Source of the DNA: a virus
Taxonomy: Duplodnaviria > Heunggongvirae > Uroviricota > Caudoviricetes
IMG/VR virus record: IMGVR_UViG_2698536471_000018
Coordinates: 1 to 39,898 of that record
Length of the DNA: 39,898 nucleotides
Strand: one strand, 5' to 3'
The translations under genes and the position numbers were made by a program. Shown here piece by piece: positions 3,092 through 3,265 of the stretch. Numbering within the stretch: position 1 is the first letter of the stretch; every line of letters begins with the position of its first letter. Below the pieces are notes generated by a model. It did not search any database. It was not told the origin of the DNA and saw only the letters and a program-made list of their open reading frames with translations.

Positions 3092-3265
3092 TCACACTGG
3101 CTCATCAAAATCACACTCTGGGCAAATCCAGCATTGGAAGCCGTAGCGCTCTCCCTGATACATTTGCGTTCCACATATGGGGCAAAATCTTATCTCGGAG
3201 GCTGGATTTGACGCCTGGTTTTCGTTTTCTGGTGACGCATTAGAATCTGCCATGATTTTCTCCAT
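3092..3265 (-). CDS. Small zinc-ribbon protein (57 aa, two CxxC pairs), translationally coupled to upstream tail gene
   Basis: Not in ORF track (<60 aa). Hand translation: MEKIMADSNASPENENQASNPASEIRFCPICGTQMYQGERYGFQCWICPECDFDEPV. Start ATG overlaps upstream stop (TAATG); GGAG 7 nt before the second in-frame ATG at 3253. Confidence 0.45.
   Translation of the reverse strand: MEKIMADSNASPENENQASNPASEIRFCPICGTQMYQGERYGFQCWICPECDFDEPV

Follow-up and report, generated by a model that had tools for sequence, protein, structure and literature searches.

The window analysed here, the 39,898 nucleotides (nt) of the IMG/VR virus record IMGVR_UViG_2698536471_000018, is a lambdoid Escherichia coli prophage with a contractile tail. 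On its minus strand, at the end of the late operon and directly after the gene for the tail-fibre assembly chaperone Tfa, lies a gene of 53 codons plus stop (3092..3253) for a small protein of a zinc-ribbon family, hereafter called the ribbon protein. We found that this gene is genuine and strongly conserved, that its start codon is the ATG at 3253, that it and one subtype of the Tfa C-terminal domain (Tfa-C) accompany each other exclusively and in both directions of search, and that the two are exchanged together by recombination. The reading that we prefer, with a probability of roughly 0.55, is that the ribbon protein is a Tfa-bound co-factor of tail-fibre assembly and the dedicated partner of one Tfa subtype.

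An earlier note on this DNA, made from the letters and a list of open reading frames (ORFs), had described a 57-codon minus-strand ORF with two CxxC pairs at 3092-3265. The ORF is exactly as described there: the 57 codons of 3092..3265 translate to MEKIMADSNASPENENQASNPASEIRFCPICGTQMYQGERYGFQCWICPECDFDEPV, with the motifs CPIC and CWICPEC. The note began the gene at the first ATG (3263..3265, minus strand), in a TAATG overlap in which the ATG shares its A (3265) with the end of the upstream gene's TAA stop codon. This upstream in-frame ATG would add the residues MEKI; it is without a Shine-Dalgarno (SD) sequence of its own and is not conserved as a start, the codon at that position being GTG, TTG or a non-start in most homologues. 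The second ATG (3253, codon 5) gives a protein of 53 amino acids (aa) beginning MADSNAS, and its Met was invariant in the alignment of homologues. The SD sequence GGAG lies at 3263-3260, with the ATG 6 nt downstream, and an SD of the GGAG or AGGA type stands 6-9 nt before the conserved ATG in every homologue. Because the Met and the SD before ATG 3253 are kept and the TAATG codon is not, we assign the gene to 3092-3253, 53 aa plus stop (MADSNASPENENQASNPASEIRFCPICGTQMYQGERYGFQCWICPECDFDEPV). The 11-nt intercistronic spacer between the tfa stop and this ATG (3254..3264, minus strand, TGGAGAAAATC) carries an SD-ATG arrangement that is kept in all homologues, and its length is 2-17 nt in nearly all of them. 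The proposed coupling to the last tail gene therefore stands as tight linkage, but its TAATG overlap is not a conserved start.

The note had also called the gene unannotated. That was true of the ORF track available to its author but not of RefSeq, where the Prokaryotic Genome Annotation Pipeline (PGAP) places WP_352067360.1, a "zf-TFIIB domain-containing protein", at the same position in E. coli strain 54 and in the 53-aa form. For the identical gene sequence PGAP gives a 23-aa "hypothetical protein" from an internal Met in MS 119-7 and makes no call in OkiPb01713; this comparison covered window positions 3092-3253 and the RefSeq copies L001, L002 and L038. In databases the family appears only under the generic label "zf-TFIIB domain" or as a hypothetical protein, and the lesson for annotation is that at this size the gene can be overlooked or called wrongly.

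When 5.8 billion proteins were searched by a word index, 47 homologues with lengths of 51-59 aa emerged, in E. coli, Enterobacter, Citrobacter and Salmonella. In their alignment the C-terminal 32 residues were nearly invariant (RFCPICGTQMYQGxRYGFxCWICPECDFDEPV) and the N-terminal ~20 residues were variable, acidic and polar. Among 23 distinct nucleotide versions of the core the proportion of synonymous sites changed (pS) was 0.83, which is near saturation, and that of nonsynonymous sites (pN) was 0.075 (pN/pS ~0.09); for 15 genes of equal length, pN/pS was 0.067 in the core versus 0.55 in the tail. Identity at codon positions 1, 2 and 3 of the minus-strand frame was 0.93, 0.95 and 0.58. The variable third positions of the minus strand are the second positions of the plus-strand ORF called at 3037..3243 (68 aa, TTG start), and that ORF is therefore an antisense shadow and not a gene, as the earlier note had supposed. 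The codon-level comparison that the note had proposed as a check also went in favour of the gene: the frame is kept in relatives under strong constraint and is not remnant fibre sequence. 1.84 billion cluster representatives, searched exhaustively with a profile, yielded only ~30 clusters, consisting of stand-alone proteins of 47-68 aa; C28, W46 and C48 (57-aa numbering) were invariant in them, and the putative fourth ligand was alternatively C45 or C51. Longer profile hits, considered as possible Tfa-ribbon fusions of the Rosetta-stone kind, were low-complexity or unrelated CPxCG repeats. Two further candidate relatives were rejected, L006 as a GFA-type protein from a Paracoccaceae genome and L040 as the C-terminal ribbon of a topoisomerase.

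The ribbon protein has a calculated mass of 6.0 kDa and an isoelectric point of 4.05. Residues 1-21 form an acidic disordered tail and residues 22-53 the ribbon, with cysteines at 24, 27, 41, 44 and 47 (53-aa numbering). The protein matched Pfam PF13453 (Zn_ribbon_TFIIB) with 25.5 bits against a gathering cut-off of 22 (E=8.7e-6), and 46 of the 48 family members matched the same model at E<=1e-3. AlphaFold2 (AF2), run with the family alignment, gave a disordered N-terminus, with a predicted local distance difference test score (pLDDT) below 50 at residues 8-21, followed by a three-stranded ribbon (strands 34-40, 43-48 and 53-56; pLDDT 83-88). These results bear out the zinc-ribbon micro-protein proposed in the earlier note, a protein that would bind zinc. 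The tail is N-terminal in the enterobacterial members and C-terminal in the members from Pseudomonas, the cyanophage and Edwardsiella phage GF-2. The ribbon protein shares with PF13453 the CPxCG first knuckle, the CxxC second knuckle, the three-stranded ribbon (predicted here) and the stand-alone small size; the clade is unlike PF13453 at large in its 13-residue inter-knuckle spacer, fifth Cys, invariant Trp, C-terminal motif CW(I/V)CP.CD(F/Y).EP and strict linkage to phage tfa. PF13453 itself is a generic fold family without an assigned function and includes ZifS of Thermus thermophilus (PDB 8yoz). The ribbon protein received no functional assignment from NCBIfam, PHROGs or PADLOC, and with the YacG gyrase inhibitor model NF002362 it scored 15.2 bits against a cut-off of 79.

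Searches seeded with the ribbon recovered 3 genome loci and 31 IMG/VR loci, and the stop codon of a tfa homologue lay just upstream in every one. Baseplate J type, fibre and the N-terminal half of Tfa differed among these loci; the C-terminal ~70 residues of Tfa were conserved (...YQDDIEKLNRAWLAAAVNDGVNET.KKD.VLAQIN.RK.QYA.DRAAIIAQYP). A search seeded with Tfa-C recovered 39 loci in IMG/VR, to which phage isolates were added. Downstream DNA was available at 44 Tfa-C loci, and all of them carried a small Cys-containing (ribbon) ORF within 17 nt of the tfa stop; one further locus has a truncated tfa. The count of 44 is made up of 42 loci scored by script, GF-2 (ORF-33) and L054, which is the same contig as L017; L058, the same contig as L024, also has the ribbon. 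Pairs with only 32-49% identity in Tfa-C (L070 and L072-L078) each had an equally divergent mini-ribbon immediately downstream. Among the ~45 loci there was no case of a ribbon away from tfa.

The pair is found in prophages of E. coli, Enterobacter, Citrobacter, Salmonella, Kosakonia and Phytobacter and in several phage isolates. It is followed by an integrase gene in Edwardsiella phages GF-2 (ORF-32/33) and Edno5 (0032/0033), by lysozyme genes in the virulent Pseudomonas phage vB_PsaM_M1 (Ounavirinae; UZS00944/945), and by more late and lysis genes in the Leptolyngbya/Plectonema cyanophage Lbo-JY16 / Lbo240-yong2 (WAE39416/415); it is also present in Vibrio phage K412, where the ribbon is unannotated, and in Erwinia phage AnSW2-5-P-A, whose record carries no annotation. 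Elsewhere the downstream neighbour is a low-GC acyltransferase gene, a humD gene with a LexA box, int, the prophage end by host dsbB and nhaB, or lysis genes. With downstream neighbours this variable and tfa the sole invariant neighbour, the link is to tfa and not to the operon end, the attachment (att) site or lysogeny. The position at the very end of the late operon, which the earlier note had found unusual, is incidental, since co-directional genes follow the ribbon gene in vB_PsaM_M1 and in the Leptolyngbya/Plectonema cyanophage. Two other candidate links were rejected. Against a link to humD, that gene is under a LexA box of its own, lies across a terminator from the ribbon gene and is missing at many loci; against a link to the integrase gene or the att site, the ribbon gene is carried by virulent phages too and stands at prophage ends that have no int.

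Annotation of the pair in the isolates was uneven. In Vibrio phage K412 (L085 ~2715-2864, OZ196335.1) a 49-aa CxxC...CxxC ORF, MEVIYVGTVCPRCSNNQYIKMMFGVSEYKRCIECGRTSVIAESDDLQEK, begins 1 nt past the tfa stop (VPHK412_0078), and three tiny annotated ORFs downstream of it look spurious. The Tfa-like chaperones of vB_PsaM_M1 (L082 2396-2713, OP714164.2, UZS00944.1) and Lbo-JY16 (PP438408.1 21385-21588) are labelled "DNA-directed RNA polymerase", which is almost certainly a mis-annotation, and the ribbon of Lbo240-yong2 is labelled "rubredoxin-related protein".

A natural exchange places the breakpoint within tfa. In E. coli GPEC1031, MB10 and others the window's fibre tip and the N-terminal half of its Tfa are kept, with 88-98% nt identity; past a breakpoint inside tfa these strains carry a different allele of both Tfa-C, which ends ...DIAAAKLKYPI, and the ribbon, which reads ...KFCPICGSTMHQQDYLNGKWWFCDDEECGFFEPV. 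Among 5,426 complete E. coli genomes type A was found in 19 and type B in 16, with both parts always together. Pairwise identities of Tfa-C and the ribbon core were correlated with r=0.87, versus r=0.30 for the N-terminal half of Tfa and the ribbon. Several pig and cattle isolates, NT1F10, 54 and STB20-1 among them, carry both alleles, type A in a prophage near 1.47 Mb and type B in a second one near 3.6 Mb; such isolates are a natural background for testing cross-talk between two Tfa-ribbon pairs.

In RefSeq copies 99-100% identical over a 1-kb query around the ribbon gene, the genes for the Q antiterminator, lysis, terminase, head, tail, baseplate, fibre and Tfa are all co-directional with the ribbon ORF. 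In the window, the gene for the tail fibre (3683..4762, minus strand; 359 aa with a gp53-like C-terminal domain), the presumed client of Tfa, is followed by tfa (3265..3681, minus strand; 138 aa from the PGAP start), which begins 1 nt past the fibre stop. PHROG 188, "tail fiber assembly protein", matched residues 1-89 of this Tfa at E=5e-16, and PF02413 (Caudo_TAP) is precomputed on many of its homologues. The N-terminal domain of Tfa is variable. Its C-terminal domain (PNSELRK...DRAAIIAQYPV; 3268..3477, minus strand), the part that always co-occurs and is swapped with the ribbon, is a conserved helical hairpin, formed in the AF2 model (pLDDT 93.5) by helices 70-101 and 107-135. No promoter-like site was found upstream of the ribbon gene on the minus strand.

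The ribbon gene is the last cistron of the Q-dependent late (tail) operon, and with its own SD and ATG 11 nt past the tfa stop the protein should be made together with the fibre and the chaperone. The ribbon co-occurs, co-diverges and co-recombines with the Tfa hairpin and with nothing else, which points to the C-terminal domain of Tfa as its binding partner. On our preferred reading, the protein would bind this helical-hairpin (trimerisation) domain and take part in folding or assembly of the fibre, whether as a co-chaperone, as a cap or as a subunit retained at the tip; its disordered tail could be a holdase-like or solubilising arm. In a stronger form, the fibre, Tfa and the ribbon would be a three-gene module in which the Tfa trimerisation domain has the ribbon as its obligate, allele-specific partner (co-chaperone or retained distal-tip subunit), needed for functional fibres from E. 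coli to Pseudomonas, Vibrio and filamentous cyanobacteria. We hold this stronger form tentatively, at somewhat less than even odds.

Comparison with known systems supplied parallels for both partners. Tfa proteins such as TfaMu and Pam3 gp25 are modular, with a variable N domain that binds the fibre and a conserved helical C domain that trimerises (PMC9608196). The window Tfa, in its AF2 model, shares the layout published for Mu U/TfaMu, P2 G, lambda Tfa and Pam3 gp25, a variable N domain and a two-helix C domain. The Tfa systems described so far are two-component, made up of fibre and Tfa, whereas here a ribbon gene is co-transcribed as a third; a full-text search of the literature returned no description of a zinc-ribbon gene after tfa or of a third, zinc-ribbon component of Tfa systems. 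For the ribbon protein the parallel is Ruc (Rv0991c) of Mycobacterium tuberculosis, a redox-regulated chaperone and proven holdase that consists of a zinc ribbon and a disordered hydrophilic tail (PMC7448276). Ruc is a cellular protein linked to the chaperone genes DnaK, ClpB and GroEL (PMC7448276). By architecture the two are alike: each has a ribbon of at most ~50 aa and a hydrophilic, sequence-variable disordered tail, and each gene is linked to chaperone genes. They differ in that Ruc has CxxC-N17-CxxC and a C-terminal tail (PMC7448276), whereas the window ribbon has CxxC-N13-CxxC and an N-terminal tail. The precedent of Ruc indicates that an architecture of ribbon plus disordered tail can act in protein folding.

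Several observations weigh against a Tfa-bound co-factor. Adjacent genes co-diverge by linkage alone, and the correlation of 0.87 is therefore supportive and not decisive. In the distant members L070, L076 and L077/L078 one or both of the first-knuckle cysteines are replaced (YCPNEG, RCPADA, RCALDG) and the second CxxC is kept; zinc may therefore not be universal in the family, and in these members the fold may persist with three Cys plus an acidic ligand, or metal-free. Foldseek comparison of the ribbon model with the PDB gave only generic ribbons (Rpb9 N-ribbon, TFS and ZifS) at a non-significant E>=0.06, and the family profile against PDB sequences likewise gave only generic ribbons (ZifS, E=0.69). 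The window Tfa had no Pfam hit at E<=1, and Foldseek of its model against the PDB returned nothing significant and did not recover TfaMu. To our knowledge, moreover, the classical Tfa systems of Mu, P2 and lambda function without such a ribbon protein.

Many zinc ribbons act on RNA polymerase, DNA or RNA. The ribbon protein might accordingly be a late-expressed effector or regulator with a conserved target of this kind, a host component or a nucleic acid, and travel with the 3' half of tfa since recombination rarely parts them. Its TFIIB-type fold resembles the RNA polymerase-associated ribbons Rpb9 and TFS, its extremely conserved, aromatic-rich core would fit a conserved target, and the N-terminal tail is under relaxed constraint (pN/pS 0.55). 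We consider this explanation unlikely. The structural matches just cited were non-significant, and no ribbon stood apart from tfa among the ~45 loci. Over hosts that range from enterobacteria to cyanobacteria the ribbon diverges with Tfa-C and is not constant within a host group; E. coli alone has two very different ribbon alleles, each linked to its own Tfa-C allele. The idea of a regulator, raised in the earlier note from the habits of small phage zinc ribbons, found no support. Small Cys4 phage proteins encoded near the tail or att end of the genome do include P2 Ogr and P4 Delta, which are late activators, and Mu Com, and the ribbon protein is like them in this respect; however, it had no match to Pfam Ogr_Delta at E<=1, the window prophage uses a Q antiterminator and not an Ogr-type activator, and the ribbon is also present in virulent phages. 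The zinc-finger protein Com of Mu acts on the overlapping downstream gene mom. A Com-like post-transcriptional regulator that binds the 3' end of the operon mRNA and tunes translation or stability of the fibre and tfa messages would agree with a small, predicted zinc-binding protein whose gene lies at the tail-fibre end of the genome, like com in Mu, and with a hairpin that overlaps the ribbon stop codon ahead of the terminator. We judge it very improbable, because the ribbon gene lacks a downstream target such as mom: it is followed here by a terminator and a convergent gene, and by unrelated genes in other phages. There was also no Pfam or PHROG link to Com, and no conserved RNA element was found beyond the terminator, none having been searched for.

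In the window the ribbon gene sits in a classical moron region, beside acyltransferase, humD and int genes, and it had a weak match to the Lar-like restriction alleviation family (phrog_6422, E=0.54), as might be expected of a lysogenic-conversion gene that had entered between the tail genes and the att site and served superinfection exclusion or anti-defence. That explanation is less probable still. The ribbon gene is without its own promoter, in GC content (48.1%) it resembles the phage (window, 48.7%) and not the acyltransferase gene (35.5%), PADLOC gave no hits, and the ribbon is present wherever this Tfa-C occurs, including in virulent phages without a lysogeny module. Finally, a short ORF that PGAP omits or shortens in some genomes, and of which a few copies are decaying (Cys lost, stop lost, or W changed to R), could be no gene at all but a chance ORF, an antisense shadow of the plus-strand ORF, or a tail-fibre remnant. 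This is effectively refuted by a core pN/pS of 0.07 with saturated synonymous sites, by at least 47 homologues that keep the frame, the start and the SD, and by a Pfam match above the gathering score.

What is new, on the preferred reading of a Tfa-bound co-factor, is that a zinc-ribbon component, itself conserved, is added to a tail-fibre chaperone module; the comparative signal for it is clean and broad, and the function that we infer from it would be a part in fibre assembly. Tfa chaperones decide whether receptor-binding proteins fold, which gives them a central place in host-range engineering, in retargeted pyocins and in phage therapy. If the reading is correct, a conserved third component would alter how fibre modules are cloned and exchanged; in the stronger form of an obligate partner, attempts to swap these fibres or to engineer host range with them would fail if the matching ribbon were left behind. 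The phage protein would then also join a small set of zinc-ribbon-plus-disordered-tail chaperones such as Ruc.

The fibre region is a recombination mosaic, in which one fibre tip is found on at least two baseplate types (DUF2612/wedge-1 and Mu-like YmfQ/StfP). The fibre ORF of the window (3683-4762) is intact; the annotation of related RefSeq genomes gives a pseudogene fragment plus a short "gp53-like domain-containing protein". Downstream of the ribbon gene, a strong bidirectional intrinsic terminator (3009..3037, both strands), a 13-bp G+C-rich hairpin between A- and T-runs, serves as the end of the late operon and also of the convergent acyltransferase gene, and in most temperate homologues the ribbon gene is likewise followed by a terminator-like hairpin. 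A second predicted RNA hairpin (3057-3100, minus strand) has an 11-bp outer stem, spans the ribbon stop codon and lies upstream of the terminator; the two hairpins fold together at -32.8 kcal/mol (z=-4.25).

Beyond the terminator lie the Acyl_transf_3 gene (1863-2879, plus strand), the S24/HumD-like gene (1165-1554, minus strand) and an intS-type integrase gene (1-1158, plus strand). The acyltransferase, whose role is probably in O-antigen or surface-polysaccharide acetylation, occurs in no more than a subset of related prophages, is disrupted by an insertion sequence in MS 119-7, and has the look of a classical lysogenic-conversion moron. A perfect SOS box, CTGTATATACATACAG, lies at 1574-1589, 20 nt upstream of the PGAP-type humD start at 1554 (MGFPSP...); given the position of this LexA box, the mechanically called 147-aa humD ORF from 1608 is probably too long. 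The same layout of LexA box and start was found in L024, L025 and L034. The S24/HumD-like gene is a stand-alone, LexA-controlled UmuD homologue with no adjoining umuC. Genes for tRNA-Thr(TGT) and tRNA-Asn(GTT) (27009-27164, minus strand) closely follow the Q antiterminator gene and precede the lysis cassette.

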